Origin: an uncultured delta proteobacterium
GTDB taxonomy: Bacteria; Desulfobacterota; BSN033; UBA1163
NCBI GenBank assembly: GCA_963711845.1
Contig: CAVQFR010000041.1
Span: 21,182 to 85,181 of the forward strand
Reading direction: 5' to 3'
DNA length: 64,000 bases
Made by a program: the position numbers and the translations under genes. Positions 13,983 to 42,542 of the stretch are shown here, piece after piece. Every line of letters starts with the position of its first letter. Positions within the stretch are counted from its first letter, which is position 1. The notes under the pieces are model-generated. The model saw only the letters and a program-made list of their open reading frames with translations. It ran no database searches and was not told the DNA's origin.

Positions 13983-15611
13983 TTAGAAGATGGAGGGTTC
14001 TTTAAACTCTCCGTAGACACCCTTAAAGACCTTTGTCATCTCACCCACAGTGGCATAAGCCTTACAGCATTCGAGAAGATAGGGCATGACGTTCTTCTCA
14101 GCCCTCGCAGCACTTTCGAGATCTTTCAGCAACTGTGAAACCTTTCGATTGTCCCTTTCGCGCTTCACCTCTCGAAGCCGCTGGACCTGTTCTTCTGCGG
14201 ATCCCAACCGGTATTCGTGGAGCTCAACCTCCATCTCTTCCCCTTCCGTATATTTATTTACTCCCACCTTGATCAACTCTCCCTTTTGGACCCCTTTCTC
14301 AAACTCGTAGGCCTGCCTCGCGACTTCTTTCTGAACGTAGCCCGTCTCAACGGCCTTGATCATCCCTCCCATTTCATCGACCCGCTTCATCTCCTCAATA
14401 ATTTTTTCCTCCATCTGTTTGGTCAAGGTTTCGATAAAGTAGGAACCCGCCAAGGGATCGACCGTATCCCTCAACCCAATCTCTTCCATCAGAATCTGGA
14501 ATGTCCTGAGAGAGAGGAGGGCTGCTCTGGGCGTTGGGATGGTGTAAGCTTCGTCAAAGGAACAGAGAGCAGTCGTCTGAGCGCCGCCTAAAGCCGCCGC
14601 CAGGGCATAGTACGCACCTCGAATGATATTGTTTTCGGGCTGGGCTTTGGTCATTCCATATCCGCCGCCGCCAAAGATTCCCCGCAAGAGGAGGGATCGA
14701 TTATCCTTGGCTCCGTAGCGCTCCTTCAGGTTTTTTGCCCAGAGTTTTCTTGCCGCACGGAACTTGGCTACTTGTTCCCAGAGGTTTCCAAAGACATTGA
14801 GGTTGAAGGTGAAGCCCCTGACAAAATCGTCGATGTGATGGCCACGGCGCAAGACTTCCTCGATATAGGTATTGGCAATCTGGAAGGCGTAAGCGATTTC
14901 CTGAACAGGAGAACAACCCGATTCGCGAATGTGATAACCACAAACACTGACAGGGTTGGTTCGGGGAAGTTCCTTCATCGAATATTCGATCGTATCACCG
15001 ATGAGACGTACGGCGGGTTTCACTGGAAAGATCCATGCTCCCCGTCCGATCATCTCTTTGAGAATATCGTTTTGAGGGGTAGCGCTCACTCGATCTTTTT
15101 TAAATCCATATTTTTCGGCAGTTGCCTGGAACATGGCCAGCATGATGCTTGCTACAGCATTGATGGTGAGGCCGGCGCCAATTCGGTCGAGTGGGATGCC
15201 CTGGAAGGCAACTTCGAAGTCTCTGAGAGAATCAACCGCCATACCTACCCTTCCCACCTCACCCTCCGCCAACGGGTCATCGGAATCGAGACCCATTTGG
15301 GTGGGAAGATCGAAGGCGACATTGAGACCGGTCTGGCCATGGGAGATCATCAGTTTGAAACGCTCATTGGTCTCTTTGGGCCTTCCGAAACCCGTATACT
15401 GCCGGGTGGTCCACTCCCGACTCCGGTAGCCAAGGGAATGGATTCCCCGGGTGTAAGGATATTCGCCTGGAAGACCTAAGTCCTTGTCCGGGTCAAAACC
15501 GATCGCTTCTAAATCCTTCTTCGTATAGAGAGGTTTGACGTGGATGCCAGATTGGAGGATCACATCCTGAACTTCGTCTTTCTCATTCTTGATATATTTT
15601 GCAACACCCAT
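13983..15611 (-). CDS. Acyl-CoA mutase large (substrate-binding TIM-barrel) subunit, methylmalonyl-CoA mutase family
   Basis: MCM catalytic-domain homology throughout. The likely start is ATG at 15611 with RBS GGGAG. The B12-binding domain is encoded separately, upstream. Confidence 0.85.
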   Translation of the reverse strand: MGVAKYIKNEKDEVQDVILQSGIHVKPLYTKKDLEAIGFDPDKDLGLPGEYPYTRGIHSLGYRSREWTTRQYTGFGRPKETNERFKLMISHGQTGLNVAFDLPTQMGLDSDDPLAEGEVGRVGMAVDSLRDFEVAFQGIPLDRIGAGLTINAVASIMLAMFQATAEKYGFKKDRVSATPQNDILKEMIGRGAWIFPVKPAVRLIGDTIEYSMKELPRTNPVSVCGYHIRESGCSPVQEIAYAFQIANTYIEEVLRRGHHIDDFVRGFTFNLNVFGNLWEQVAKFRAARKLWAKNLKERYGAKDNRSLLLRGIFGGGGYGMTKAQPENNIIRGAYYALAAALGGAQTTALCSFDEAYTIPTPRAALLSLRTFQILMEEIGLRDTVDPLAGSYFIETLTKQMEEKIIEEMKRVDEMGGMIKAVETGYVQKEVARQAYEFEKGVQKGELIKVGVNKYTEGEEMEVELHEYRLGSAEEQVQRLREVKRERDNRKVSQLLKDLESAARAEKNVMPYLLECCKAYATVGEMTKVFKGVYGEFKEPSIF

Positions 15612-15647
15612 AGTAAACTCCCAAAATCCGAATATCGAAATCTTCAC

Positions 15648-15860
15648 CCTGTTAAGTCATTCCGCCTGAAGTTGACGACTTTACTTTTCCTGGACGGATC
15701 GTGATACATCAAACCAAAAGCTACCCAAAACCTACTTAACAGGGCAGGCAAATCCGAAATTTAAATATCAAAATTCAAGAGGTTTCCGTTTGGGAAATTG
15801 GGTTTCTGGACATTTGTATTTGTTTCGGATTTCGTGCTTCGAATTTAAAGTTTTCCCCGA
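15648..15860. repeat. Intergenic heptad-periodic repeat element (same family as 2943-3203)
   Basis: aaaatccgaatatcgaaatc at about 15622-15642, caaatccgaaatttaaatatcaaaattc at about 15752-15780, and ggatttcgtgcttcgaatttaaag at 15820-15845. Confidence 0.6.
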
Positions 15861-16262
15861 TCAAGATCGGGGTTTAATATGTTCTTTGATCCATCGGATC
15901 GATTCGTCGAAAGAGGTTCCTCCGGGAAAGATGCCCTGGATCCCAATCTTTTGGAGAGGAGGGATATCCCGTTTGGGGATGACACCGCCAATGACTACCA
16001 GGATATCATCGATCTTCTTCTTTTCCATTTCCTTCATCAGTTTTTCACAGATCGGCAGGTGGGCTCCGGACATGATGGATAGGCCGATGACATCCACACC
16101 CTCCTGGATGGCGGTATGGGTGATCTGATCGATGGTCTGATGAAGGCCGGTGTAAATGACCTCCATCCCCGCATCACGGAGGGCTTGCGCCACCACTTTC
16201 GCCCCTCGATCATGACCGTCCAAACCAGGTTTTGCGACTAAGATACGAATTTTTTTCTCCAC
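15861..16262 (-). CDS. Cobalamin (B12)-binding small subunit of an acyl-CoA mutase
   Basis: 133 aa. B12-binding Rossmann domain with a DxHxxG-type motif (GLDGHDRGAKVVAQAL). Confidence 0.85.
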   Translation of the reverse strand: MEKKIRILVAKPGLDGHDRGAKVVAQALRDAGMEVIYTGLHQTIDQITHTAIQEGVDVIGLSIMSGAHLPICEKLMKEMEKKKIDDILVVIGGVIPKRDIPPLQKIGIQGIFPGGTSFDESIRWIKEHIKPRS

Positions 16263-17003: not shown

Positions 17004-17121
17004 AGAGTAACCTCTTTTTTATATGCCAAGGGTCTTGGCTTGTCAAGGGTTTTTTGGTGAGGAAACGGGATAGGGAAGGGGAAAAGGCTTGACACCATCA
17101 GGGTTTTGGGTATATATAATT

Positions 17122-17140
17122 TTTTGTATACAGTATCCAA
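17122..17140. promoter_or_regulatory. Putative GntR operator copy (TTGTATACAGTATCCAA)
   Basis: Same motif, about 25 bp upstream of the CoA-transferase RBS. Confidence 0.4.
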
Positions 17141-17163
17141 ATCGAGACCAGGAGGCGATTTTC

Positions 17164-18282
17164 ATGGACGAAGTCCAACTTTTTGAACATATTACTGTTT
17201 TGAGTCTCGAACAGGCAACTGTTCTCCCCTATTTAACCCTCCGTTTGGCTGAGGAAGGAGCCCATGTCATTCGCCTTGAACATCCCATCTACGGTGACCC
17301 GAACCGGAGGATCGGGGACGATGTCCTGAAAGAGGACAGAATGTTTTCCTACTACCTCTCCATCAATGCGGGAAAAAAGGCTTTGACGCTGGACTTGGCA
17401 ACCCCGGAGGGAGCAAAAATCTTGAAGGAACTCGTCCTCAAACTGAAGGTGGATATCTTTGCCACCAACCAACTCCCCAGAAATTATGCTAAGCTCGGGA
17501 TTGAATATCAGATGCTTAAGAAGATTAAAGAGGATATTATCTGGTTGGGGATGACCGGTTTCGGTCCGCAGAGTAATGAGGCCGCCTATGATCCTGTGCT
17601 GCAAGCAAGAGGAGGATTGATGGACCTCACCGGTGAAAAAGGAGGAAGCCCTCAGGTGATGGGGATACCTCTCCCTGATATGGGAGCGAGTGAACACGGT
17701 TATGGCCTCTTAATGAAGGCCCTTTATAAAAGAGCCGTTACAGGACAAGGAAGCCGCATCGATCTCTCGATGTTCGAAAGCACGGTCTCCTGGCTCACTC
17801 AGGCCATCACCCATACGGTTTCGTTCAGGAAAAAGGTGACGCGAAGGGGAAATACTCACGAATTCTTTGCTCCGGTTTCCGTTTACGAGACAAAGAATGG
17901 CTATGCTTACATTGCCTTGGGAAATGACCGGCAATGGGAGACAATGACCAAGATTCCAGGGTTTGAATCTCTCTCCAAGAGAGAGTATGAGCGAAACGCA
18001 GGCCGGATTGCCGATGTCGATAATCTCAACCGGGCACTCAATACGATTACAGGAAACTTTACCACGGAGGAATTGATGGATACCTTTAATAAGGCCACTC
18101 TTCCCATCTCCAAGGTAAATTCAATTGAAGAAGTCGTGGAGGATCCCTTTGTCAAACCCAACTTGATTCGAAGCAAAGATCCAAAGACAGGGATTGGAAA
18201 TCACCATTGCCCCCCCGTCCGTCGAATACCTCGTTCTGAAATCGATCAATCGAATGACTCGCTTTCCTCCCCGATTCGGTGA
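17164..18282 (+). CDS. CoA-transferase family III (CaiB/BaiF/benzylsuccinate-CoA-transferase-like)
   Basis: Family III CoA-transferase signature (LSLEQATVLPYLTLRLAEEGAHVIRLE...). The likely start is ATG at 17164 after AGGAGG. The longer ORF from 17089 reads through the promoter/operator. Confidence 0.85.
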   Translation: MDEVQLFEHITVLSLEQATVLPYLTLRLAEEGAHVIRLEHPIYGDPNRRIGDDVLKEDRMFSYYLSINAGKKALTLDLATPEGAKILKELVLKLKVDIFATNQLPRNYAKLGIEYQMLKKIKEDIIWLGMTGFGPQSNEAAYDPVLQARGGLMDLTGEKGGSPQVMGIPLPDMGASEHGYGLLMKALYKRAVTGQGSRIDLSMFESTVSWLTQAITHTVSFRKKVTRRGNTHEFFAPVSVYETKNGYAYIALGNDRQWETMTKIPGFESLSKREYERNAGRIADVDNLNRALNTITGNFTTEELMDTFNKATLPISKVNSIEEVVEDPFVKPNLIRSKDPKTGIGNHHCPPVRRIPRSEIDQSNDSLSSPIR

Positions 18283-18502
18283 ACACAACGAGGAGATTTA
18301 CGGTGGGCTCTTGGGATATAGTAGCGGCCGGCTGAAGGAGTACAAGGAGAAAAATATTATTTAGTTATGAGTTTTGAATTTAGAATTTGGAGGTTGAGAC
18401 TTGTTTGGGATTTGTGATTTTGGATTTAAGTGTGTCCAAATCAGAAGAATGGTCCAAAAACTGCTGGCGATCATTTGCATCATACGCCCAAAGGAGTGAG
18501 CC

Positions 18503-19663
18503 ATGGCACTTGACTTCAGTTTTACAGAAGACCACGAGTTCTTCAGGCAGACAGTCCGGGTTGCTGTGAAGCGTTTAATCATACCCCGGGTCAAGGAACT
18601 GGACGAAAAAGAGGAATTCCCCTGGGACCTCTGGAAGGAATTTGCTGCCCTGGGGTATCTCGGTCTAAGACACGAAGAAAAATACGGGGGCATGGCAACC
18701 GATATCATTAGTCAGATGATCTTCTATGAAGAACTCGCAAGGGGATCTTGCGGATTTGCTATGTCGGTAATCATGCAGATTCTCATGGGAACCTATTTCA
18801 TCGCCCGTTTTGGAAGCGAGGCCATCAAACAAAGAATCCTTGTGCCAGCGATCAAAGGCGAGAAAATCGGAGCAATCTGCTTTACGGAAGACCAGTCCGG
18901 TTCTGACCTTGCTGGAACAAGAACTGTCGCAACGAAGGTGGATGGAGGTTGGAGGATCGACGGCCGAAAACAGTGGATCACCAACGGTCCAATTGCTGAA
19001 TTCGCTACAGTGATGGCAACGGTGGATCGGAAAATGGGCCTTAAGGGTCTTAATTTTTACCTCGTAGAAAGGAAGACGGAGAATCGTGATGGGTTCGTCC
19101 CCGGCCAGAAGATCCATAAATTGGGCTCTCGCTGCTCGGTGACAGGGGAATTGGTGTTCGACAATGTCTTTGTTCCTGATGAGAATTTCCTGGGAGAAGA
19201 GATTGGTAAAGGGGTTCAGTACGCAGGGGAGATATTAAATGAAGTCCGGGTGATGACTGGTATGAATGCTTTGGGGATTGCAAAAGAAGCCATGGAAGAT
19301 GCGAGGCAATATGCCAATAACCGAATTGCTTTTGGAAACCCTATCAGCAAGTATCAACTCATTCGCGAAAAATTTGCCAAATTCTGGGCCTGGTATGAGG
19401 CTTCGCGAACCTTCCTCTACAAATGCGCATGGATGATTCAAAACAACATTCCTTGTACTAACGAATGCATGTTGGCCAAATATCATTCTGCAGAGATGTG
19501 TATGTACGCGGTGGAAGAGGCCATGAGGATCTACGGTGGAAACGCCTTCTGCAGTGAAATCTCTGTTCAACGATTCTGGAGAGATGCCAAATTCCTGCTC
19601 TATGGTGGTGGCACCCATGAAGTTCTGTGTGACTATCTGGGAAGGATTTACTGTAAAGATTAA
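18503..19663 (+). CDS. Acyl-CoA dehydrogenase
   Basis: 386 aa with the ACAD fold (N-terminal helical, beta and C-terminal helical domains; ...YGGNAFCSEISVQRFWRDAKF...). Confidence 0.9.
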   Translation: MALDFSFTEDHEFFRQTVRVAVKRLIIPRVKELDEKEEFPWDLWKEFAALGYLGLRHEEKYGGMATDIISQMIFYEELARGSCGFAMSVIMQILMGTYFIARFGSEAIKQRILVPAIKGEKIGAICFTEDQSGSDLAGTRTVATKVDGGWRIDGRKQWITNGPIAEFATVMATVDRKMGLKGLNFYLVERKTENRDGFVPGQKIHKLGSRCSVTGELVFDNVFVPDENFLGEEIGKGVQYAGEILNEVRVMTGMNALGIAKEAMEDARQYANNRIAFGNPISKYQLIREKFAKFWAWYEASRTFLYKCAWMIQNNIPCTNECMLAKYHSAEMCMYAVEEAMRIYGGNAFCSEISVQRFWRDAKFLLYGGGTHEVLCDYLGRIYCKD

Positions 19664-26616: not shown

Positions 26617-26723
26617 GAAAAATTCCTTGACAATTTAGGATAGAAGTTTTAACGTTAACGCACGAATTTTGATTCTAGATAAAATGTAGTAGTTTCATGG
26701 TGATATGTTGGAGACAGAATCTC

Positions 26724-26754
26724 TTGATATAATTTATCAAATGTATTATATAAT
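26724..26754 (+). promoter_or_regulatory. Putative sigma70 promoter of the por operon (TTGATA-N17-TATATAAT) overlapped by a TTGATA..TATCAA inverted repeat
   Basis: cttgatataatttatcaaatgtattatataat lies 30-55 bp upstream of the porG start. Confidence 0.45.
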
Positions 26755-26780
26755 CTGCGATTATTACCCGGGAGAAACAG

Positions 26781-27329
26781 ATGATTGAGATTCGATTTCA
26801 CGGAAGAGGTGGCCAAGGGGCTGTCAGTTCGGCGGAACTTTTGGCCTTGGCAGCGATTGAAGAAGGTAAGTTTGCTCAAGCCTTTCCAAGCTTTGGTCCG
26901 GAGCGAAGGGGAGCACCGGTGCTGGCTTTCTGTCGAATTAGCAATGAACCGATTAGGATCAGAGCCAATATCTACGAACCGGATCTCGTGGTCGTCCTTG
27001 ACGCTTCGCTTTTGAAGATCGTTAACGTGGCCGCCGGGTTGAAACCGGATGGTATTCTGGTCACCACAAGCAATGATCTTCCTGAGAAGGTAAAAGAGAG
27101 CCTGAAGATAAGAAACCGAATCGGAGTGGTGGATGCGGTCAAGATTGCCAGGGAGGTTCTCGGACTTCCCATTACGAATACCACCATGCTTGGGTCTTTG
27201 GTAAAGGTTTCGGGATTGGTCAAGAGGGAGTCCTTTATCTCTCCTTTGAAGGAGCGGTTTGGTCGAATTGCCGAAAAGAACATTTCTGCTTTCGAAAGAG
27301 CCTATCAGGAAACCATCCTCATCCAATAA
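26781..27329 (+). CDS. porG: 2-oxoacid:ferredoxin oxidoreductase gamma subunit
   Basis: 182 aa in the POR/VOR/KOR gamma family ([22 protein letters not shown]...). Confidence 0.85.
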
Positions 27330-27378
27330 TTTTTATTCCCCTTTCTTTGGGGGAAAGATCAAAAAGAGGTAGAAAGGT

Positions 27379-27678
27379 ATGACAAAACCTGAGTCAGAAT
27401 GGACATGGAAGGAATTGCCAGTCGGAAATGTTGTCTTAGAGCCCGGGAATGCCAGCCAGTATCGGACAGGAGATTGGAAGACCCTCAAACCTGTTCTGAA
27501 AAAGGAGCTCTGCATCCATTGTGGATTGTGCTATATCTTCTGTCCGGACATGGCCTATAGCCTGAATGAAGAGGGTTATTTCATTGCGGACCTTTTCTAT
27601 TGCAAGGGGTGTGGCATCTGTGCAAAAGAATGTCCCACCGGAGCCATCACCATGGTGCTGGAAGAGGAGGAGAAATAA
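27379..27678 (+). CDS. porD: 2-oxoacid:ferredoxin oxidoreductase delta subunit (2x[4Fe-4S] ferredoxin)
   Basis: 99 aa with two CxxCxxCxxxCP motifs. Confidence 0.85.
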   Translation: MTKPESEWTWKELPVGNVVLEPGNASQYRTGDWKTLKPVLKKELCIHCGLCYIFCPDMAYSLNEEGYFIADLFYCKGCGICAKECPTGAITMVLEEEEK

Positions 27679-28851
27679 ATGGGGAAAAGGGTTGGAATGG
27701 AAGTTTCAATTGCTGCGGCCGAGGCGGTGAAGCAGGCCAATGTTGATGTGATCTCTGCTTATCCCATTACGCCTCAAACGCATATCGTTGAACACCTCTC
27801 GGAACTGGTGGCGAATGGAGAGATGGATGCAGAATTCTTTTGTGTGGAGTCCGAGCACTCCGCATTGAGCGTCTGCTTGGGGGCGGCGGCGACCGGGGCG
27901 AGGGCATTCACGTGCACGAGTTCTCAGGGGTTAGCCCTGATGAGTGAGATCACCTATATCGCCTCGGGCTTGAGGCTGCCGATGCTCATGATCCTTTCGA
28001 ATCGAACGCTCTCGGCTCCCTTGAGTATCTGGAACGATCATAGTGACGCGATGTCCATCCGGGACTGTGGGTGGGTTCAATTCTTCGTGGAGAACGGTCA
28101 AGAGGTCTATGACCATGTGTTTGTGTCCTATCGTTTAGCAGAGGATAAGAAGGTCCTCTTTCCGGTCATCATTAACATGGACGGATTCGTCCTCAGCCAT
28201 GTGATCGAACCGATCGAACTGATTCAGCAGGAGAAGATCGATCAGTTCCTTCCTCCTTATCAACCTGTTTACCAACTGCACCCTGATCATCCGGTGACCA
28301 TGGGTGCTTTTGCCCTTCCCAGCATCTTTGCGGAGGCAAAGAAAGCTCAAGAGGAGGCTCTCCGGTCATCGATCCCTAAGATCCTGGAAACCTGGAAGGC
28401 CTTCGGAGACATGACGGGGAGATATTATCATCCCGTCGAGAGCTATAAGACCGAGGATGCGGATACGTTGCTGGTCACTATGGGAAGTTGCAGCGAGACG
28501 GCCTCAGTGGCGGTGGATAAGATGCGAGAGGAGGGAAGATCTGTTGGGCTCGTCAAGATTCGACTCTGGCGACCTTTCCCCTTCGATGATTTCAAGAAGG
28601 CGACCCTCCGCGCCAAGCAGTTGGTGGTGATCGACCGTGCCATGTCCGTCGGGGCGTGTGGACCTGTTGCCTCGGAGGTGAAAGCAGCCCTCTATGGGAA
28701 GGACGACAGGCCATCCATCTATAATTTCGTTGCAGGGATTTCAGGAAGGGATGTGACTCCTTCAGACTTCGTCAAGATGGTGGACAAGGCAGAAATTGAG
28801 ATTGGAGAAGGAAATAAAGAAGGCTATGAAATGTATGGGGTGAGAGGATGA
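27679..28851 (+). CDS. porA: 2-oxoacid:ferredoxin oxidoreductase alpha subunit
   Basis: 390 aa in the POR alpha family. Overlaps the beta subunit gene by 4 nt. Confidence 0.9.
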   Translation: MGKRVGMEVSIAAAEAVKQANVDVISAYPITPQTHIVEHLSELVANGEMDAEFFCVESEHSALSVCLGAAATGARAFTCTSSQGLALMSEITYIASGLRLPMLMILSNRTLSAPLSIWNDHSDAMSIRDCGWVQFFVENGQEVYDHVFVSYRLAEDKKVLFPVIINMDGFVLSHVIEPIELIQQEKIDQFLPPYQPVYQLHPDHPVTMGAFALPSIFAEAKKAQEEALRSSIPKILETWKAFGDMTGRYYHPVESYKTEDADTLLVTMGSCSETASVAVDKMREEGRSVGLVKIRLWRPFPFDDFKKATLRAKQLVVIDRAMSVGACGPVASEVKAALYGKDDRPSIYNFVAGISGRDVTPSDFVKMVDKAEIEIGEGNKEGYEMYGVRG

Positions 28852-29780
28852 CTGAAAATTTAAATGTTTTTGCAGTTCGGACACTGACTCAAAAAGAATA
28901 TTTTACACCCGGCCATCGGTCCTGCCAGGGATGCGCCGAGGCATTGGCAGTGAGATTGGTTGCCAAAGCGGTGGGAAGGAACGTGATCATTGCGAATGCC
29001 ACAGGCTGTATGGAGATCGTTTCTTCTCCGTTGCCCTACACGGCTTGGAGGGTGCCCTGGTTCCATGTGGCTTTTGAGAATACGGCGGCTGTTGCCTCTG
29101 GCATTGAATCCGCCTTGAAGGTCTTAATGAGAAAGGGAAGAATCCCCAACAAAAAGATCGTCACCCTTGCCATGGGCGGGGATGGGGGAACAGCGGACAT
29201 CGGTTTCCAGGCGCTCTCCGGTGCCCTGGAGCGGGGGCACAACTTTCTCTACGTTTGCACCGACAATGAGGCCTATATGAACACCGGGATCCAGCGGTCC
29301 TCCTCGACGCCTTTTGGGGCATCCACGACCACCTCTCCCGTCGGGAAGGTTCAAATGGGGCAGATGACGTGGAAGAAAAATATGCCTGCCATCGCAGCGG
29401 CTCATAATATTCCTTATGTGGCCACCGCCTGCCCCAGTTATCCGATCGACTTGGTGCAGAAAGTGAAGAAGGCGGCTGATATCGAGGGTCCTGCCTACGT
29501 TCATATTCTTTCTGTTTGCCCCACCGGGTGGAGATCGGCGCCGGAACTCTCGATCAAGCTGGGCCGGTTGGCCGTAGAGACGGGGGTTTTTCCCCTTTAT
29601 GAGGTGGAGCGGGGGCAATATCGTCTGAATATTGATTTCCCGAAATTGAAGCCTATCAAGGAATATATCAAGCTTCAAGGAAGGTTCCGTCACCTCACGG
29701 ATGAAATGATCGGGGAGATTGAAAAACGAGTTCACAGGGAATATGAGCAATTAAGAGCGAAAGCAGGAAAGGGAGCTTGA
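28848..29780 (+). CDS. porB: 2-oxoacid:ferredoxin oxidoreductase beta subunit (TPP-binding)
   Basis: TPP motif GDGG..DIG and Cys ligands for the proximal [4Fe-4S] cluster. Confidence 0.9.
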   Translation: MTENLNVFAVRTLTQKEYFTPGHRSCQGCAEALAVRLVAKAVGRNVIIANATGCMEIVSSPLPYTAWRVPWFHVAFENTAAVASGIESALKVLMRKGRIPNKKIVTLAMGGDGGTADIGFQALSGALERGHNFLYVCTDNEAYMNTGIQRSSSTPFGASTTTSPVGKVQMGQMTWKKNMPAIAAAHNIPYVATACPSYPIDLVQKVKKAADIEGPAYVHILSVCPTGWRSAPELSIKLGRLAVETGVFPLYEVERGQYRLNIDFPKLKPIKEYIKLQGRFRHLTDEMIGEIEKRVHREYEQLRAKAGKGA

Positions 29781-29781
29781 G

Positions 29782-30234
29782 ATGGAAGTTTCAAAGATTG
29801 ACGGTATCATTCGACAATACGGGGCAAGGGAATCAGCGATCCTGGCCATCCTGCAAGATATACAGGCTGAGGAAAAGTACCTTCCCAAGGAAACGTTGGA
29901 GTACGTTTCTCAGAGGATGGAGATTCCCCTGGGGCAGGTCTTTCGCATTGCCACGTTCTATAACGCATTAAGCCTGAAGCCCCGGGGTCGGCACAAGATT
30001 GATGTGTGCCTTGGGACGGCCTGCCATGTCCGAGGGGGGGAAAGAATTTTAAGTAAACTGGAGAGAGATCTGGGCGTCTCTGTGGGGGAGACCACCAAGG
30101 ATAAACGGTTCACCTTGGAATCGGTTCATTGCGTTGGCTGCTGCAGTTTGGGGCCAGTGGCTGTCATTGACGGAGACGTCTTCGGCCGTCTTTCACAGGA
30201 TAAGGTGCCTGGCCTGTTAAAAGATTTCAAATAA
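29782..30234 (+). CDS. NuoE/HydC/HoxE-like thioredoxin-fold [2Fe-2S] subunit
   Basis: 150 aa with Cys motifs C..CxxxC...C (CLGTACHVRG...CVGCC). Starts 2 nt after the porB stop. Confidence 0.85.
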   Translation: MEVSKIDGIIRQYGARESAILAILQDIQAEEKYLPKETLEYVSQRMEIPLGQVFRIATFYNALSLKPRGRHKIDVCLGTACHVRGGERILSKLERDLGVSVGETTKDKRFTLESVHCVGCCSLGPVAVIDGDVFGRLSQDKVPGLLKDFK

Positions 30235-30435
30235 TTGGTTGTGATCAAATCGTAACCCTGGCAGGCAGGATGCCGATGCTTGACGGACACGAAAAACGGA
30301 AACGCCTGCGTGCTGAAACGTCTTGTCCAAAGCGTTCTCATCCGCCACAGAACCTTTTCTGGAGCGAGGCAGGTGAAGATGGATACTACGGCGTGCAAGC
30401 ACGGTCACGTTATCTAAGTTAAGATTGAGGGAAAA

Positions 30436-32364
30436 ATGAATATTCAGACGAAGAACGATTTGGAGAAGATAAGAGAAGAAGGCTTGAAATCTCTTTATCC
30501 CGGTGCGGCGAAGATTTCTGTAGGGATGGCGACCTGCGGTCTCGCCACGGGTGCCGGTAAGGTTTACGAGGCCATTCAAAAAGCGATAGAAAAAGCCAAG
30601 GTTCCGATCCTTCTGGGACGGACAGGCTGCATCGGTTTCTGCCAGAGAGAGCCCGTCGTGGATATTTTGGAGCCGGGAAAACCCAGAGTCTTCTATCAGG
30701 AGGTGACCCCTGAGCGCTGCGGCGAGTTGGTTGAGAAATGGCTGGAGAACAGAGTGGTGGAGGATCTGTTGTTCTGCAAGATGGAAAAAGAGGACCGAAT
30801 CCTTGAGGGTTCGGCAAAAGATTACTCCATCCGGAGCGTCCCCGCAGGAATGGATGGGACTCCCAGTTATCATCAGGTCCCCTTTTACAGCAAACAGTTA
30901 AAGATTGCGCTGAGGAACTGCGGGTTCATCGATCCCGATCATATCGAGGAGTACGTTGCCAGGGGAGGATATTTCTCTCTCTATCGAGCCCTCTTCGAAA
31001 TGAAGCCGGAAGAAATCATTGAAGAGGTAAAGCGATCAGGTCTCCGCGGGAGAGGAGGGGCTGGGTTTCCGACAGGCAGTAAATGGGATTCATGCCGGAA
31101 GGCAAAGGGGGATCGGAAATTCATCCTCTGCAACGCCGACGAAGGGGACCCGGGAGCCTATATGGACCGAAGCATCCTGGAAGGCGATCCTCACAGCGTG
31201 ATCGAGGGGATGATTATCGGGGCCTATGCCATCGGGGCCCACGAAGGATATATCTATGTCAGGGATGAATATCCGCTGGCTATCGAAAAGCTCAAGATCG
31301 CCATCCGTCAGGCCGAAGAGAGAGGGCTGTTGGGTGATCATATTATGGGGTCTGGCTTTTCGCTCAAAATCAACCTTTTCCGGGGAGGCGGGGCGTTTGT
31401 CTGCGGAGAATCCACAGCCCTGATGGCCTCCATCGAGGGGAAGGTTGGAGAGCCGAGGGCCAAACATATTCACACCACGGAAAGCGGTCTCTGGGATAAA
31501 CCCAGTAACCTGAACAACGTGGAAACCTGGAATAACGTCCCCATGATCATTTCAAGGGGTGCAGACTGGTATTCGAAGATCGGAACCGAGGGGAGCAAAG
31601 GGACAAAGGTCTTCTCCATTGTGGGAAAGGTGAACAATACCGGTCTGATTGAAGTTCCCATGGGAGCCAAACTGCGAGAGATCGTTTATGATATCGGAGG
31701 AGGAATTCCAGATGGAAAGAAGTTCAAAGCGGTTCAGACCGGAGGCCCTTCGGGTGGATGTATTCCTGAATCGCTGATTGATATGCCCGTGGATTACGAT
31801 CAGTTGACCGAGGTGGGCTCGATGATGGGCTCCGGCGGAATGATCGTCATGGATGAGTCCACATGCATGGTAGACGTCGCAAAATATTTCATGAACTTTC
31901 TCAAGAGCGAATCCTGTGGAAAGTGTACCTCCTGCCGGGAAGGGACGAAGCGGATGCATGAGATCCTGACGGAGATTGCCGAGGGACGAGGAACCGCGGA
32001 TCACATCGACCTTTTGAAGGAATTGGGATGGGTGACCGCAGAAGCCTCTCTCTGCCAGCTGGGAGCCACGGCTCCGAATCCCGTCCTCTCCACCCTCCGG
32101 TACTTCCAGAGCGAATATGAAGAACATATTATCAATAAGCGATGTCCGGCAAAGGTCTGTCAGGCACTGCTCCGATACCGGGTTCTCTCTGATGTCTGCA
32201 AGAGGTGTGGCCAATGCATCAAGGCCTGTCCGGCCGAGGCCATCACCGGCAAGAAGAAGACGAAGAAGGAGGCCGGAGAGCCCTTTAAAATCGATACCAA
32301 AAAGTGTACCCGGTGCGGGATGTGTTTTGAGGCCTGCAAATTCGAAGCGATAGAAGTCGAATAA
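30436..32364 (+). CDS. NuoF/HydB/HndC-like NAD(H)- and FMN-binding subunit with an extra N-terminal [2Fe-2S] Trx-like domain and a C-terminal 2x[4Fe-4S] domain
   Basis: 642 aa. NuoF core (GRGGAGFPTGSKW, FMN/NADH sites, CxxCxxC...C), an N-terminal HndC-type domain and C-terminal ferredoxin motifs (CKRCGQCIKACP, CTRCGMCFEAC). Confidence 0.9.
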   Translation: MNIQTKNDLEKIREEGLKSLYPGAAKISVGMATCGLATGAGKVYEAIQKAIEKAKVPILLGRTGCIGFCQREPVVDILEPGKPRVFYQEVTPERCGELVEKWLENRVVEDLLFCKMEKEDRILEGSAKDYSIRSVPAGMDGTPSYHQVPFYSKQLKIALRNCGFIDPDHIEEYVARGGYFSLYRALFEMKPEEIIEEVKRSGLRGRGGAGFPTGSKWDSCRKAKGDRKFILCNADEGDPGAYMDRSILEGDPHSVIEGMIIGAYAIGAHEGYIYVRDEYPLAIEKLKIAIRQAEERGLLGDHIMGSGFSLKINLFRGGGAFVCGESTALMASIEGKVGEPRAKHIHTTESGLWDKPSNLNNVETWNNVPMIISRGADWYSKIGTEGSKGTKVFSIVGKVNNTGLIEVPMGAKLREIVYDIGGGIPDGKKFKAVQTGGPSGGCIPESLIDMPVDYDQLTEVGSMMGSGGMIVMDESTCMVDVAKYFMNFLKSESCGKCTSCREGTKRMHEILTEIAEGRGTADHIDLLKELGWVTAEASLCQLGATAPNPVLSTLRYFQSEYEEHIINKRCPAKVCQALLRYRVLSDVCKRCGQCIKACPAEAITGKKKTKKEAGEPFKIDTKKCTRCGMCFEACKFEAIEVE

Positions 32365-32512
32365 AATATAGAGTAAATAGGTTAATGAGTGATTACGTTA
32401 ATAAGTTATCAGGGGACATAACCAGTCGACAATTCGATACTCATTCACTCATTAACTTATTACCTCATTGACTGAATACTTCAACAACCTGTGCTCACCC
32501 GGAGGAAAATCC

Positions 32513-33226
32513 ATGATTCCTTTTGTGATTGACGGTCAACCCGTAGAAGGAAAAGAAGGCGGGAATGTTTTAGAAGTAGCGATGGATGCAGGCATCGATA
32601 TTCCACACCTCTGTTTTAGCGAGGCGGTGAAGCCCTACGGCGCCTGCCGTCTCTGTCTTGTGGAAGTGGGGAGGAGAGGAAGATCGAAGATGACCACTTC
32701 TTGCACCTATCCTGTTTTGGAAGGAATTGAGGTGTTCACACAAACAGAGAAGGTGTTGCGTGCCCGCCGAATGATCATCGAACTCATCTTGGCGATGTGC
32801 CCTGGCGACAAGCTCATACAGGAGTTGGCCAGAAAGATGGGGGTGAATGGGGTCCGATTCAAGCAAGAGGACAAGGACTGCATCCTTTGTGGTCTTTGCG
32901 GCAGGGTCTGCGAAGAAGTCGTGGGGGCCAATGCCATCCAGTTCGCCTTTCGTGGAGATCGGCGGGAGATGATCCCGCCCTTTCAAGGAGAAGCGATGAG
33001 CTGTATCGCTTGCGGTGCCTGTGTGATCGCCTGTCCTGTAGATGTCATTCGGATGAAGGAAGAAAAGGATGAGCGGACGATCATCCGGTGGAAACGAACA
33101 TTGAAAATGAAACAATGTAAAATCTGTGGAAATTATTTCGCCCCCTGGTTTCAGTTGGAAAAGTTCAAAGAGCAGGCCAAACTCCAAAAAGATTTTTTTG
33201 ATGTCTGTTATACGTGTCGGACTTGA
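32513..33226 (+). CDS. NuoG-N-terminal / HoxU / HydA-N-terminal-like FeS subunit lacking any catalytic domain
   Basis: [2Fe-2S] ferredoxin fold (C..GACRLC..C), a His/Cys cluster motif and two [4Fe-4S] motifs. Start ATG at 32513 after GGAGG. About 237 aa. Confidence 0.8.
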   Translation: MIPFVIDGQPVEGKEGGNVLEVAMDAGIDIPHLCFSEAVKPYGACRLCLVEVGRRGRSKMTTSCTYPVLEGIEVFTQTEKVLRARRMIIELILAMCPGDKLIQELARKMGVNGVRFKQEDKDCILCGLCGRVCEEVVGANAIQFAFRGDRREMIPPFQGEAMSCIACGACVIACPVDVIRMKEEKDERTIIRWKRTLKMKQCKICGNYFAPWFQLEKFKEQAKLQKDFFDVCYTCRT

Positions 33227-33731: not shown

Positions 33732-33747
33732 ATGAGAGGGGAAGGGG

Positions 33748-33780
33748 GCCCTTTGAAAGAGGGTCCCCTTTTTTTATTTC
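33748..33780 (+). terminator. Rho-independent terminator
   Basis: gggggccctttgaaagagggtcccc followed by ttttttt. Confidence 0.7.
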
Positions 33781-40077: not shown

Positions 40078-41111
40078 TTATCCATGTTTGGCCTTTGACC
40101 GCAACCACCCCAGCACTTCGTTCATATCTTCAGGGATGGGGGAAACAAATTTCACCCTTTCTCCACTTCGAGGGTGGGTGAATTCCAATCGTCGGGCGTG
40201 AAGGGCCTGGCGATTCATTCTCTTCACACACTCTTTCAAAACAGGGTCATGGATCGCCCCGGGTCTCCCTTTTCTTCCGTAGAGAGGATCTCCCAAAACG
40301 GGATGACCAATGGAGGAGAGGTGCACCCGGATCTGATGGGTTCGGCCGGTCTGAGGAAAGATCTCAAGGAGAGTGCAGCACTCAAATTCCTCCACTTTCT
40401 TCCAGCGAGTGACGGCCGCCCTTCCTTTTCTCGTCCGGGTCGACATCCGCTTTCTCTCACTTGGGTGTCTTCCGATGGCCGAATCGATTAAGCCTTCGTT
40501 AGGGCCGAATCTTCCGTAGGCAACGGCAAATAGACCTTTTCCACGGTCCGGTTTCTAAACTGTTTGGTCAAATGATGAAAAGCTTCATCCTCTTTAGCGA
40601 CGACCATCACACCCGATGTGTCTTTGTCCAATCGGTGCACGATCCCTGGTCTTAAGACACCATTAATGCCGGCGAGATCTTTGCAATGGTAAAGAAGGGC
40701 ATTGACCAATGTGCCGGAGGGATTTCCATAAGCAGGATGGACAACCATTCCGGGAGGCTTGTCAATGACGATGAGGAACGGGTCCTCATACAGGACGGTC
40801 AGGGGAAGGGGTTCTGGTTGGAGAGAAAACGATTCAGGCTGGGGGAGGCTTCCTGAGATCCTATCACCCGCTTTTAGATGTGTACTGGGTTTGGTCGGTT
40901 TTTGATTTAAAAGGATGTGATGTTTCTGAATCAAAGTTTTTGCATGAGAACGGGAGAGATTGAGATCGGCTTCCGAGAGAAATTGGTCGAGGCGCCTTCC
41001 GTGATCCTTTTCCATGACTTGAATGGAGAAAGATAAGTTCCCCTCCCCCCTCTTTAGCAAAGGGGGGGTGGGGGGATTTTGGAATTTATTCTTTATGGAA
41101 TCTTGCATCAT
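40078..41111 (-). pseudogene. rluD: RluA-family 23S rRNA pseudouridine synthase (RluD-like) split by a frameshift between 40446 and 40490
   Basis: ORF 40488..41111 has the S4 and catalytic N-terminal part (...HRLDKDTSGVMVVAK...). ORF 40078..40446 has the C-terminal part (...CTLLEIFPQTGRTHQIRVH...). The two are in different frames. Confidence 0.7.
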
Positions 41112-42542
41112 TGCGGCTGGAGATATTTCAATGCCTTCTCAATTCCGGCAGCCAAAAGAGGGATTTCTTCATCGAAGACGGTTCTCATATCCAGAATCAA
41201 TTCCTCTTTGCTGATTCGAGAAATAATCGGGGGATCACTCTTCCGTAGATTTTCTTCAAGGCTGTTCACGGAAAAGTCGAGAGGTTTAATGGCAACGACC
41301 ATGGTTGGAAGTTCTTGAAGGGGAAGGGCTCCACCGCCCACCTGAGAGACATCTTCTTTCAAAGAGAACGTCATCCTTTCATTCGTCATCCTCGACAACC
41401 TTTTCAGCAACTGTTTTCCTCTCCTTTTTAGCTTCCTCGTATCCAAACTCAACATGCTAAGAACGGGAATCTCTTCCATGGCTCTCTTCTCGTCGAGGTA
41501 GAGAAGCAAGGTTGATTCAAGAGCGGCCAGGGTGAGTTTGTCGATGCGAAGGGCTCGGGTCAAGGGATTGATCTTGAAGAGGTCCAGAATTTTTTTCTTC
41601 CCCAGAATGATTCCCGCCTGTGGCCCTCCAAGGAGCTTATCGCCGCTAATGGTGACCGCATCCACACCGGTTTTGATGGTTTCTTGAACAGTAGGTTCTT
41701 TTTCTAATCCATATTGAGAGAGGTCCACGAGGCAGCCGCTTCCTAAATCATCCACGACAGGGAGCTGATGCTCCCTCCCCAGTTGGACCAGATCCTGCAG
41801 AGAGACTTCGGAAGTGAATCCCATCACTCTGAAATTACTGGTGTGAACCTTCAGAAGCAGAGCCGTGTGAGGGCCAATCGGCCTTTTGGTAATCGTTGAA
41901 GTGAGTACGATTGGTCGTCCCGACCTCCCTGAGCAAAGCCCCGCTTCGTTTCATGACATCGGGGATTCGAAAAGCTCCCCCGATTTCGACCAGTTCTCCT
42001 CTCGAAACGATCACCTCCTTGCCCTCTGCAAGCGTATTCAAGGCAAGTAAGACAGCCCCGGCATTATTGTTCACCACCAAGGCTGATTCTGCTCCTGACA
42101 GGCGGCAGAGAATCTCTTCCACATGGGTATAACGGTCTCCGCGTTCACCCCGATCCAGGTCATATTCTAAATTGGAATAGGTTTTGGAGACCTCCATCAG
42201 ATGTTTAATCGCAGAGGAATGGAGGGGAGCTCTTCCCAGATTGGTGTGGATGACCACCCCGGTCGCATTGATCACCCTGCGGAGGCGGGGCTGAATCTGA
42301 AGGTCGATCTCTTTCTGAAAAAGAGGATAGAGGTTCTCGAAAGAGAAGATGGCCTCTCCTCGTTGAGAGAGGTCTTGTTTGTGGAGGATGTCATCGCGCA
42401 GCCGTCCCAATCCCTTTCGGATGGCTTCGACCACGACATGGCGGGGATGGACCTTTAAGAGGTCAACGATCTCTGGCCTTGAGAGGAGTTCATCGACGCT
42501 GGGGATCTCACGGAGCACCTGTTGACGAAGGGATGGAGACAT
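41108..42542 (-). pseudogene. selA: L-seryl-tRNA(Sec) selenium transferase, split by a 1-nt frameshift near 41876
   Basis: N-part RVINATGVVIHTNLGRAPL...VVNNNAGAVLL...VSRGELVEIGGAFRIPDVM...VGTTNRTHFNDYQKA. The C-part continues ALLLKVHTSNFRVMGFTSEV...DDLGSGCLVDLSQYGL...GDKLLGGPQAGII only in another frame. Confidence 0.8.

Follow-up and report, generated by a model that had tools for sequence, protein, structure and literature searches.

The closest described counterpart of the locus analysed here is Por-Bfu (A–G), a class named by Schut et al. 2022 (PMC9304861; Front Microbiol 13:946711) and predicted in Chloroflexi and syntrophic Proteobacteria. In its example, Dehalococcoides mccartyi 195, seven components are found: four POR subunits, BfuC, BfuB and an FeS-only BfuA that lacks clusters A3 and A5. 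The enzyme is proposed either to oxidise pyruvate with bifurcation or to make pyruvate from NADH and ferredoxin. The Dehalococcoides genes are co-expressed (PMC9304861), and a Zn-finger motif in the BfuA of Por-Bfu was noted in 2025 (PMC12318220). Literature searches found no biochemical characterisation of any Por-Bfu (complex, activity or stoichiometry), in agreement with an earlier reading of this DNA (the original prediction), which held that POR-linked Bfu modules lacking a catalytic domain were uncharacterised. Related systems differ in the module that feeds the Bfu core: (i) the characterised, bifurcating WorABCSL of Acetomicrobium mobile (9MQX), in which a tungsten aldehyde oxidoreductase is plugged into BfuABC; (ii) the bifurcating [FeFe]- and [NiFe]-hydrogenases HydABC and HydABCSL (7t2r, 8a6t, 7p5h), which have a homologous BfuB/BfuC core; and (iii) the Codh-Bfu and Fdh-Bfu clusters (predicted or characterised Type 2/1).

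The window, a stretch of 64,000 nt from the metagenome-assembled genome of an uncultured, Syntrophales-like member of the Thermodesulfobacteriota, contains the same seven components as adjacent intact genes on the forward strand (26781–33226), in the order porG-porD-porA-porB-bfuC-bfuB-bfuA. All seven open reading frames of the original prediction were recovered. The arrangement is that of the Por-Bfu class published in 2022, of which this is one more copy, in the Thermodesulfobacteriota, and the host agrees with the groups named earlier (syntrophic 'Proteobacteria' and Chloroflexi). The AT-rich region between recR and porG (26617..26780, + strand) is a likely promoter region for the cluster; TTGACA and TTGATA-N17-TATATA were spotted in it by eye, and a consensus promoter scan did not flag it. 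Downstream of bfuA, hsp20 follows at 52–62 nt, and neither hox or nuo genes nor NiFe hydrogenase subunits were found near the locus. Genes of acyl-CoA metabolism also occur in the window.

Domains were assigned by Pfam and NCBIfam profile searches. The first four genes encode the subunits of a 2-oxoacid:ferredoxin oxidoreductase: gamma (porG, 26781..27329, 182 aa; PF01558 POR domain, 1.9e-42), delta (porD, 27379..27678, 99 aa; 2x[4Fe-4S], two Fer4 domains and two CxxCxxCxxxCP motifs), alpha (porA, 27679..28851, 390 aa; POR_N, 2e-71, and PFOR_II) and beta (porB, 28848..29780, 310 aa; TPP_enzyme_C, binding TPP and the proximal [4Fe-4S] cluster). PorG and PorD score far above the family cutoffs (223.7 versus 81 bits on TIGR02175, PorC_KorC; 99.6 versus 60 bits on TIGR02179, PorD_KorD). 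The substrate is probably pyruvate. PorB exceeds the cutoff of the PorB equivalog (NF008819, 434.3 versus 405 bits), and its top solved match is the beta subunit of a pyruvate:ferredoxin oxidoreductase (9bt4_C, 8e-94), with which the Cys and GDG...N motifs align. An enzyme of the same architecture and coupling that acts on another 2-oxoacid, such as 2-oxoisovalerate or another branched-chain or aromatic one, would fit the slight shortfall of the other three subunits on the pyruvate-specific NCBI equivalogs (PorA 490.8 versus 550 bits, with PorA_Arch as its top model; PorG 223.2 versus 225; PorD 113.3 versus 120) and the high scores on ketoisovalerate (VOR) models, for instance 363 bits for PorB on NF008818. 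However, for each of the four subunits the pyruvate models score above those for VOR, oxalate, phenylglyoxylate and others, and we regard a different substrate as very improbable.

The remaining three genes encode a Bfu module. BfuC (29782..30234, 150 aa) is a NuoE/HydC-like protein (PF01257, 5e-49) with the Cx4C...Cx3C motif for the C1 [2Fe-2S] cluster, and among solved structures it is closest to C subunits of bifurcating enzymes, led by the A. mobile HydC (7t2r_C, 2.7e-41; then 8a6t_C and 9mqx_C, the latter at 2e-37). BfuB (30436..32364, 642 aa) is NuoF/HydB-like, with Complex1_51K, SLBB and NADH_4Fe-4S domains and, as anticipated for this subunit, a C-terminal pair of Fer4 domains (Pfam). 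Its layout comprises an N-terminal thioredoxin-like domain, the FMN/NADH site, SLBB, the B1 [4Fe-4S] cluster (N3-type), a His/Cys3 site B2, and the [4Fe-4S] clusters B3 and B4. The best solved match is the HydB of the A. mobile NiFe-hydrogenase (7t2r_B, 4.7e-226), followed by NfnB (9bov_B, 9n5u_B); against 9mqx_B the E-value is 1e-203. Bifurcating BfuB proteins are distinguished by the His that ligates B2 together with three Cys and by two C-terminal [4Fe-4S] motifs (PMC9304861). Residues C477, H564, C570 and C575 line up with the B2 ligands, and both features are invariant across homologues of 64–92% identity. The additional N-terminal [2Fe-2S] cluster of the original prediction is possible rather than established: the domain has no significant Pfam match, and the corresponding site in solved homologues holds either [2Fe-2S] or Zn (PMC11829005, PMC12018979).

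The fold order E-F-G(U) of the trio is shared with the HoxEFU diaphorase and the NuoEFG N-module of complex I, and homologues carry the JGI annotation 'bidirectional [NiFe] hydrogenase diaphorase subunit'. The window proteins nevertheless score below the HoxE, HoxU, NuoF and NuoG cutoffs (NCBIfam; 473 versus 559 bits for BfuB on NuoF), and BfuB has the B2 site and B3/B4 domain in addition. Every InterPro/Pfam domain by which Schut et al. define these subunits is present in BfuB, BfuC and BfuA. The assignment of the trio, made in the original prediction, as a HydABC-type NuoE-F-G' module without a catalytic domain is supported.

The third subunit, BfuA (32513..33226, 237 aa), is a Type 2, FeS-only protein of the NuoG-N/HoxU type (Fer2_4 and Fer4, Pfam). 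A mechanical reading frame begins at TTG 32468 (252 aa), but homologues that begin with MIPF and a GGAGG upstream back the ATG at 32513. The protein carries A1 [2Fe-2S], A2 and A4 [4Fe-4S] and a C-terminal, Zn-finger-like CxxC...CxxC motif; in an alignment with HydA the Hx3Cx2Cx5C motif of the His-ligated cluster A3 is absent at the HydA position. Its top solved match is WorA of bifurcating WorABCSL (9mqx_A, E 1.6e-43), which likewise has A1/A2/A4 but no A3 and aligns with the first CxxC of the Zn finger. In WorABCSL, too, a low-potential donor is fed through an FeS-only BfuA; the donor module there is WorSL (tungstopterin and a polyferredoxin nanowire) and not a TPP enzyme. WorA recruits WorS through a C-terminal alpha-helix adaptor, whereas the window BfuA stops three residues past the second CxxC and has the Zn-finger motif without that helix, as stated for Por-Bfu in PMC12318220. 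The hydrogenases differ further, as their third substrate is H2 and not an organic acid. BfuA thus has neither A3 nor a catalytic domain, resembles WorA and carries a Zn-finger motif, and it must therefore receive its electrons from a separate donor module.

A decayed remnant of a HydA hydrogenase or formate dehydrogenase large subunit, leaving the module non-functional, could explain why the N-terminal 180 residues of BfuA align with the N-termini of HydA, NuoG and FdhA. Yet neither BfuA nor the DNA downstream, where hsp20 lies directly next, yielded Fe_hyd_lg_C, a molybdopterin domain or any other catalytic domain, nor any H-cluster or pterin sequence. Both the length of 237–238 aa and the Cys pattern are kept in more than 120 protein clusters (79–89% identity) and at distant POR-linked loci, matches at E ≤ 1e-30 extend to 263 clusters at 50% identity (mostly 235–290 aa long), and WorA (247 aa), solved and active, has the same architecture. 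The pseudogene reading, posed as a test in the original prediction, is refuted as far as sequence analysis reaches and deserves practically no credence; the FeS-only third subunit without an H-cluster or Mo-pterin domain stands as predicted.

The gene arrangement porGDAB-bfuCBA is real and conserved. It is contiguous in each relative examined at a BfuB identity of at least 66%, with 1–4 nt from porB to bfuC and other spacers mostly of 0–30 nt, and it recurs at 53–58% identity in Syntrophales, Thermodesulfobacteriota, SAR324, a 'Pseudomonadota' genome bin and a Dehalococcoidia bin. The linkage claimed originally is genuine on this evidence. In the Dehalococcoidia bin the modules are inverted (bfuCBA-porGDAB, against por first in the window) and BfuA lacks the Cys4 tail. 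A rough neighbour-joining tree places POR-linked BfuBs in at least three groups and the window BfuB with CODH-linked BfuBs, not with that of the Dehalococcoidia. The nearest BfuB homologues without POR (64–65% identity) adjoin CODH/ACS (two loci) or formate dehydrogenase (one locus) within the same three-gene set, with an FeS-only BfuA of 219–280 aa. Such modular 'plug' behaviour is known from descriptions of Bfu enzymes; the comparisons show the Bfu core to be exchangeable and POR to be the module specific to the window's clade.

Within the window the por genes run into the Bfu module: only 1 nt, rather than the 2 nt first stated, lies between the TGA of porB (29778–29780) and the ATG of bfuC (29782). 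The gap between bfuC and bfuB (30235..30435, 201 nt) exists as described, and a second one, absent from the original prediction, precedes bfuA (32365..32512, 148 nt). A scan of both spacers showed no terminator-like or promoter-like site. The first has no Rfam match and a fold z-score of +0.46; its sequence is unique, not a repeat, and its length is lineage-specific (260, 101, 71, 32 and 23 nt in relatives), with an insertion of ~100 nt in the window. The second contains an imperfect hairpin (arms 32371-32392 and 32445-32466; 22 nt, 86% complementary; MFE of −32.9 kcal/mol, z = −2.4) without a following T-run, and the terminator scan did not flag it; this spacer measures 111, 78, 12 and 0 nt in relatives, two of which have different hairpins. 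The enlarged spacers are peculiar to a shallow subclade, the window and its closest relatives, and elsewhere measure 0–30 nt. Spacers of this length would allow the genes to be regulated separately or their mRNA to differ in stability; co-transcription across both gaps is plausible from the sequence.

The two spacers, which separate bfuB and bfuA from the por-bfuC block, also bear on whether two enzymes share one locus: an ordinary POR that uses ferredoxin, and a BfuCBA module whose partner is encoded elsewhere. The latter might feed NADH electrons into an 11-subunit Nuo, an idea once put forward for genomes of the Dehalococcoides type, or be a soluble NADH:ferredoxin oxidoreductase that recycles the ferredoxin of POR. 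No POR-Bfu fusion occurs among long BfuA homologues, and 11-subunit Nuo without NuoEFG is common among anaerobes (PMC11238625, PMC5736913). A split at the spacers, however, would fall within the Bfu module rather than between enzymes, given the 1 nt between porB and bfuC, and the linkage persists across phyla and through inversion of the gene order. The large domain at the C-terminus of NuoG is missing from BfuA, BfuB falls below the NuoF equivalog cutoff, and where BfuA is FeS-only, BfuABC by itself lacks a third substrate. Two independent enzymes are an unlikely reading of the locus. The standalone NADH:ferredoxin oxidoreductase dedicated to POR, also put forward in the original prediction, found no specific support: a BfuA with FeS clusters only depends on a partner, and in close homologues the module is joined to CODH/ACS or FDH.

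The seven genes thus probably encode a Por-Bfu, a flavin-based electron-bifurcating enzyme with a Type 2 BfuABC (HydABC-type). The gene set, its cofactor motifs, the families of its products and its conserved linkage are shown here; the physical complex, its obligatory coupling, its substrate and its direction are inferred. BfuB, BfuC and BfuA all match best to subunits of experimentally bifurcating enzymes (7t2r_B/C, 9bov, 9n5u, 9mqx_A/C). In the proposed mechanism PorGDAB would catalyse the TPP-dependent interconversion of pyruvate and CoA with acetyl-CoA and CO2. Electrons would leave POR through the [4Fe-4S] clusters of PorB and PorD, enter BfuA (A4 to A2 to A1) and pass to the BfuB/BfuC core, where the flavobicluster (B1 [4Fe-4S], FMN and C1 [2Fe-2S]) would link them, obligatorily and simultaneously, to two partners: NAD+/NADH at FMN and ferredoxin at the C-terminal clusters B3/B4. 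The net, reversible reaction would be 2 pyruvate + 2 CoA + NAD+ + 2 Fd(ox) <-> 2 acetyl-CoA + 2 CO2 + NADH + 2 Fd(red). The coupling of pyruvate/acetyl-CoA to NAD(H) and ferredoxin by a POR-Bfu complex, as originally predicted, is the most reasonable prediction.

The same complex could also operate without bifurcation, as an NAD+-dependent pyruvate oxidoreductase analogous to pyruvate dehydrogenase, with electrons passing from PorD through BfuA and B1 to FMN and NAD+, and with the B3/B4 ferredoxin-like domain dispensable or an alternative outlet. Catalytic units of 2-oxoacid:ferredoxin oxidoreductases extended by a module that passes electrons to pyridine nucleotide exist: PadEFGHI of Azoarcus/Aromatoleum (phenylglyoxylate:NAD+) and the pyruvate:NADP+ oxidoreductase of Euglena/Cryptosporidium. 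These use an added flavoprotein, a FAD/ferredoxin-NAD reductase-type subunit or a P450-reductase-type domain, and not NuoEF-type proteins, and we know of no bifurcation in them. The NCBIfam models of the NADH-dependent phenylglyoxylate dehydrogenase (PadEFGI) match all four Por subunits, though well below the equivalog cutoffs. The pyruvate/acetyl-CoA couple (about −500 mV) is as low as ferredoxin and bifurcation is therefore not thermodynamically required; pyruvate can reduce NAD+ and ferredoxin directly, and the need for bifurcation has been called unclear (PMC9304861). Against this, BfuB keeps the full feature set that non-bifurcating homologues lack (PMC9304861), invariant as noted above, and Wor-Bfu, with a donor lower in potential still, reduces NAD+ and ferredoxin only together (PMC9304861). 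We consider uncoupled NAD+ reduction doubtful.

For the bifurcating Por-Bfu, the physiological direction is most likely the synthesis of pyruvate from acetyl-CoA. An energetic estimate weighs against it: with NADH at about −280 mV and ferredoxin at about −500 mV (Table 1, PMC9304861), the mean donor potential would be ~ −390 mV and reductive carboxylation would require ~ +21 kJ per pyruvate under standard conditions. At an assumed acetyl-CoA/CoA ratio of ~10 and ~10 mM CO2, it would be feasible only at low pyruvate, for example ~20 µM or less. If NADH supplied every second electron, pyruvate synthesis would consume half as much reduced ferredoxin.

The Por-Bfu cluster was found to consist of seven open reading frames on the forward strand (26781–33226), all of which are intact as judged from the reading of the frames and from Pfam and NCBIfam searches. 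The four por genes are porG (26781–27329, 182 residues, POR domain), porD (27379–27678, 99 residues, two CxxCxxCxxxCP motifs), porA (27679–28851, 390 residues, POR_N and PFOR_II) and porB (28848–29780, 310 residues). They are followed by genes for a NuoE-like subunit (bfuC, 29782–30234, 150 residues, PF01257), a NuoF-like subunit (bfuB, 30436–32364, 642 residues, with Complex1_51K, SLBB, NADH_4Fe-4S and two C-terminal Fer4 domains) and an FeS protein (bfuA, 32513–33226, 237 residues, Fer2_4 and Fer4). In the window, dnaX, ybaB and recR lie upstream of the cluster, and the next gene after bfuA is hsp20, for which a separate promoter-like site and a strong terminator (33737–33775) were found. 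The original prediction had described the frames and domains as we see them, apart from three small corrections. The spacing between the porB stop and the ATG of bfuC is 1 nt rather than 2 nt; the gap of 201 nt before bfuB is present as described, but a second spacer, of 148 nt and preceding bfuA, had been overlooked. The third correction concerns BfuB: binding of an extra N-terminal [2Fe-2S] cluster by the 642-residue protein cannot be claimed from its sequence.

The assignment of the Por subunits was assessed with NCBIfam models and solved structures. PorG and PorD satisfied the subfamily models. Only PorB exceeded its equivalog cutoff (434 bits vs 405), and the scores of PorA, PorG and PorD were slightly below theirs. 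The best solved match of PorB was 9bt4_C (8e-94), the beta subunit of a pyruvate:ferredoxin oxidoreductase with separate subunit chains, with which its cysteine and TPP motifs line up.

The BfuABC family has been defined by the InterPro domains of its three subunits (Schut et al. 2022, PMC9304861). In that definition, BfuB contains IPR011538 (51-kDa FMN-binding), IPR019554 (SLBB), IPR019575 (NuoF 4Fe-4S) and IPR017896 (4Fe-4S ferredoxin-type); BfuC contains IPR002023 (NuoE-type thioredoxin-like [2Fe-2S]), its gene accompanying that of BfuB; and BfuA contains, as a minimum, two ferredoxin-type domains, one 2Fe-2S and one 4Fe-4S. All family domains of BfuB were detected with Pfam (PF01512, 8.8e-45; PF10531; PF10589, 7.9e-32; PF00037/PF12838). 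BfuC matched PF01257 (5.2e-49), has the C1 cysteines in a Cx4C...Cx3C arrangement and is encoded directly upstream of bfuB. BfuA matched PF13510/PF00111 and the Fer4 families, with four A1 cysteines and two CxxCxxCxxxC motifs (A2 and A4). By their predicted domain content, the three proteins belong to the BfuABC family.

Bifurcating members possess additional clusters or sites, B2–B5, by which they are told apart from NuoF homologues that do not bifurcate (PMC9304861). The best solved matches of BfuB were the BfuB subunits of experimentally bifurcating enzymes, i.e. A. mobile NiFe-HydB (7t2r_B, 4.7e-226), and further NfnB of C. saccharolyticus and T. sibiricus (9bov_B and 9n5u_B) and WorB (9mqx_B); BfuC matched HydC, NfnC and WorC. 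At the B2 site, C477, H564, C570 and C575 of BfuB align with C438, H525, C531 and C536 of 7t2r_B, a feature that is missing from non-bifurcating NuoF homologues (PMC9304861). BfuB has alanine in place of A. mobile C476. The C-terminus of BfuB carries two [4Fe-4S] motifs, CKRCGQCIKACP and CTRCGMCFEACK, which align with the solved BfuBs as B3 and B4; this domain is the ferredoxin-reducing end of BfuB in the family definition. At the level of motifs, the glycine-rich FMN/NADH segment and CGKCTSC...C540 (B1) of the flavobicluster are conserved and aligned, and the C1 cysteines are present. The B1 motif, the B2 ligands and both C-terminal [4Fe-4S] motifs were invariant in 12 homologues of 64–92% identity. 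In cryo-EM papers from 2025, only FMN, B1 and C1 are retained as the site essential for bifurcation, and Zn is shown at B2 and, in some enzymes, at B5. The N-terminal domain of BfuB aligns with residues 2–77 of 9bov_B and 9n5u_B and appears to resemble the NfnB type; three cysteines are invariant and a fourth ligand is not evident.

By far the best solved match of BfuA was 9mqx_A (1.6e-43), the WorA subunit of WorABCSL, a tungsten aldehyde oxidoreductase that bifurcates. A3 is missing, with a gap in BfuA where HydA carries the His-ligated SHNADCFECDKNLHC. The C-terminus reads CKICG...VCYTCRT-stop (CxxC...CxxC), and the first CxxC of this Zn-finger-like motif aligns with that of WorA. The motif is kept in POR- and CODH-linked BfuAs and is absent from a Dehalococcoidia locus (L023). 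The WorA homologue of Por-Bfu has been described as having the Zn-finger motif and not the C-terminal α-helix (PMC12318220), which fits the end of the window's BfuA at residue 237, three residues past the second CxxC. An AlphaFold2 model, built from a 27-sequence alignment in which all members were at least 79% identical, was confident for the N-terminal 110 residues and had a pLDDT below 50 for residues 117–237, too low to support a fold there. The FeS-only (Type 2) architecture of BfuA belongs to Wor-, Por- and Codh-Bfu according to Schut et al. (PMC9304861), and the sequence places the window's BfuA in Type 2, having neither A3 nor A5 and no catalytic domain.

A short FeS protein of this kind could also be what is left of a hydrogenase, and the original prediction had named a truncated hydrogenase pseudogene as the outcome that would count against it. 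On the sequence evidence this was rejected, given the conserved length of BfuA and the cluster counts. At 90% identity, more than 120 clusters of BfuA homologues with 79–89% identity have a length of 237–238 residues. A total of 263 clusters among 1.84 billion cluster representatives matched BfuA at E ≤ 1e-30, most of them 235–290 residues long and aligned end-to-end. In addition, nothing H-cluster-like was found in BfuA or after it, and Pfam detected no H-cluster, molybdopterin or other catalytic domain in BfuA or after bfuA. An identity as HydA of [FeFe]-hydrogenase was likewise rejected on the absence of the H-cluster domain: Fe_hyd_lg_C was not found in BfuA with Pfam, and the NCBIfam model FeFe_hydrog_A6 scored 127 bits vs a cutoff of 765. 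The 90%-identity cluster of the window's own BfuA contains 1,084 sequences, and sequences identical to its BfuB, BfuA and PorA occur in public collections, on an 85-kb contig; members of the same 90% clusters carry the name 'Thermodesulfobacteriota bacterium'. A profile search with distant BfuAs again returned matches mainly from the window's own clade.

The likeness of the three subunits to NuoE, NuoF and NuoG raises the alternative of a complex I N-module (NuoEFG) or a HoxEFU diaphorase. The equivalog scores were below cutoff for NuoF (473 vs 559 bits), NuoG (91 vs 470), HoxU (123 vs 333) and HoxE (147 vs 224), and the neighbours are dnaX-ybaB-recR and hsp20, on which grounds this assignment was rejected. 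A standalone NADH:ferredoxin oxidoreductase, offered earlier as a second possibility, was judged unsupported.

The original prediction had asked how often por and bfu genes occur together; the gene context of BfuB homologues was followed here at decreasing identity to the window. The order (dnaX-ybaB-recR)-porGDAB-bfuCBA-(hsp20) was found in L087/88 (BfuB identity >90%, same 90% cluster), L085 (92%), L001 (82%), L089 (79%), L004 (67%) and L090 (66%); the contig of the last begins within the por cluster and the dnaX side is not visible. At 64–65% identity, bfuC, bfuB and a short bfuA lie beside CODH/ACS (L002 and L091) or beside a formate dehydrogenase with Hdr-like genes (L092), and distant loci at 53–58% identity are POR-linked once more. 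The linkage is thus kept in relatives down to 66% BfuB identity and recurs in distant phyla; the four por genes are contiguous with the bfu genes in the window, in eight closer loci and in six distant ones. The distant loci come from a GTDB-wide scan with a BfuB alignment, in which 6 of 80 more distant loci were POR-linked among the matches listed, these being a cross-phylum sample of homologues of ≤62% identity. Two of the six are from Syntrophales and one each from Thermodesulfobacteriota, SAR324, a 'Pseudomonadota' genome bin and Dehalococcoidia, the last with the inverted order bfuCBA-porGDAB. Homologues are also carried by Syntrophus, Smithella and Dehalococcoides. The POR-linked BfuBs form at least three groups when a rough neighbour-joining tree is drawn, which agrees with the assignment of Por to clades 35, 44 and 45 by Schut et al. 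(PMC9304861). That the linkage persists across phyla, through an inversion of the order and through the exchange of modules in sister lineages is, at the level of gene context, good evidence for POR as the third-substrate module of the window's Bfu core.

A Rosetta-stone search for proof of physical contact revealed no POR-Bfu fusion among ten long BfuA homologues checked, which were either plain FeS proteins or fusions of the FrhB, Nfn-like, FDH, BfuC, GCV_H or response-regulator kind. Odd fusions in this set include a glycine-cleavage H-protein domain (P0354), an N-terminal response-regulator receiver (P0446) and an Nfn-like BfuA with a C-terminal BfuC (P0399). Two features of the fetched loci are also worth recording. 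In L001, porB (6544–7475) was called as two frames of 132 and 178 residues, with an apparent frameshift that is not present in the window. In L002/L003, directly downstream of a bfuCBA set whose BfuB is 65% identical to that of the window, a 1,713-residue CODH/ACS alpha subunit (10841–15982) matches Intein_splicing and LAGLIDADG_3 twice each.

The 201-nt gap had been singled out in the original prediction as a risk to the operon structure. The bfuC-bfuB and bfuB-bfuA spacers differ in length between lineages: 201 and 148 nt in the window, 260 and 111 nt in L085, 101 and 78 nt in L087, 71 and 12 nt in L001, 32 and 0 nt in L004, and 23 and 11 nt in L089. The alignment points to lineage-specific insertions in a short conserved spacer in which the ribosome-binding site is retained. 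A consensus scan gave no terminator-like or sigma-70-like site in either spacer, which is indirect evidence for one putative transcript; neither contains an Rfam family, and no second copies were found in the window or the fetched loci. For the 201-nt spacer, the computed fold was no more stable than those of shuffled sequences, and a 50-codon frame within it was rejected, as it sits in the lineage-specific insertion. The bfuB-bfuA spacer contains a modestly significant hairpin with 22-nt arms (32371–32466, z = −2.4); when the arm motif was checked, the second arm was the sole match. Hairpins of different sequence lie right after the bfuB stop in L085 (9930–10040, z = −1.4) and L087 (9930–10007, z = −1.5), and none of the three is followed by a T-run. 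They could be a position-conserved mRNA structure that sets the BfuA:BfuB ratio, or chance, and the evidence is too weak to call them functional. In a distant homologue, that of Dehalococcoides, expression of all genes was uniform, as cited by Schut et al. (PMC9304861). From their sequences, the spacers are probably derived and neutral, or else mRNA-stability features inside one operon.

Several other loci in the window deserve mention. A selenocysteine formate dehydrogenase alpha subunit (47477–50437, reverse strand) was called as two frames: 49931–50437 stops at a TGA (49933–49931) and continues in frame into 47477–49882, with the motif ...RI-U-HSATVAALGESFGRGAMTNH. It is followed by an FdhB-like 4Fe-4S subunit and FdhE, with genes at 46728–47462 and 45669–46547. 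selA (41108–42542, reverse strand) is split over two frames, 41835–42542 covering Pfam SelA positions 1–132 and 41108–41827 positions 150–366. Such a split is odd beside a Sec-dependent formate dehydrogenase and is probably an assembly indel, not a real pseudogene. The neighbouring RluD-like pseudouridine synthase (40488–41111, reverse strand) has 207 residues compared with 328 in L085, the remainder seemingly being in the frame 40078–40446; two apparent frameshifts in a 2-kb stretch point to indel errors in the contig. The regions 9299–13486 and 13983–15647 (both reverse) and 17089–19663 (forward) encode hydantoinase/oxoprolinase A and B proteins of the acetone- or acetophenone-carboxylase-like kind, methylmalonyl-CoA mutase, a family III CoA-transferase and an acyl-CoA dehydrogenase. 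Upstream of these genes are a GntR regulator, a TRAP transporter and a xanthine-dehydrogenase-type FAD/2Fe-2S pair, and the set as a whole resembles an island for the catabolism of an organic acid.

The cofactor-binding motifs are present and the electron paths of the homologues are known from cryo-EM. We lean towards the window genes working as a coupled Por-Bfu complex. Electrons from TPP-dependent decarboxylation of pyruvate would pass via the PorB and PorD clusters to A4, A2 and A1 of BfuA and from there via B1 and FMN to C1, to be split between NAD+ and ferredoxin. In the NAD+ branch, a hydride would be transferred at FMN; in the ferredoxin branch, movement of the C1 domain would deliver electrons to B3/B4. 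The reaction would be reversible, and in Wor-Bfu a low-potential donor is already known to be coupled obligatorily (PMC9304861).

Methylmalonyl-CoA mutase, the CoA-transferase, acyl-CoA dehydrogenase and the selenocysteine formate dehydrogenase are encoded in the same window, and its synteny agrees with Syntrophales genome bins. Since an acetyl-CoA-centred anaerobe requires a pyruvate synthase, the direction of pyruvate synthesis is proposed; synthesis with NADH and ferredoxin is also the suggestion of Schut et al. (PMC9304861). With the potentials of Table 1 of PMC9304861, the combined donor NADH plus reduced ferredoxin is estimated at about −390 mV vs a couple of −500 mV, which corresponds to about +21 kJ per pyruvate for reductive carboxylation under standard conditions; the reaction would then need pyruvate at micromolar levels to be feasible. 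This direction, which would halve the ferredoxin cost, is plausible though undemonstrated. A more detailed proposal, which we put forward tentatively and consider less likely than not, is that the seven subunits form a confurcating pyruvate synthase, with POR docked to BfuA via the WorA-like Zn-finger region and without a polyferredoxin nanowire. In such an enzyme, acetyl-CoA and CO2 would be reduced jointly by NADH and reduced ferredoxin.

The original prediction had regarded POR-linked Bfu modules as biochemically uncharacterised. This holds, as full-text literature searches turned up no Por-Bfu that had been studied biochemically, structurally or genetically. The architecture and the function it predicted are upheld as predictions, and its novelty was overstated: the class has been published (PMC9304861). 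Its host range, the Type 2 BfuA, the Zn-finger motif and the proposed functions are also in the literature (PMC9304861, PMC12318220), so that the finding is a correct, independent rediscovery of a predicted enzyme class. What is new is the lineage, which is abundant in the environment; the por-first order and the lineage-specific spacers are minor, and the window adds no concept beyond the 2022 and 2025 publications. Por-Bfu is one of several Bfu classes known as predictions only, and the puzzle it poses is why an enzyme should bifurcate from a donor already as reducing as ferredoxin. With seven genes intact and compact, the window is a reasonable sequence source for heterologous expression and cryo-EM, from a clade that is very common in environmental metagenomes. 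The confurcating pyruvate synthase has already been suggested in the literature and only its demonstration would be new; if true, it would give flavin-based bifurcation its first demonstrated enzyme on a TPP/2-oxoacid oxidoreductase base and would explain a halved ferredoxin cost of acetyl-CoA assimilation in energy-limited syntrophs. A positive result would bring the interconversion of pyruvate and acetyl-CoA, and with it central carbon metabolism, among the reactions driven by flavin-based bifurcation, and would alter how energy is budgeted when syntrophic and organohalide-respiring bacteria are modelled.
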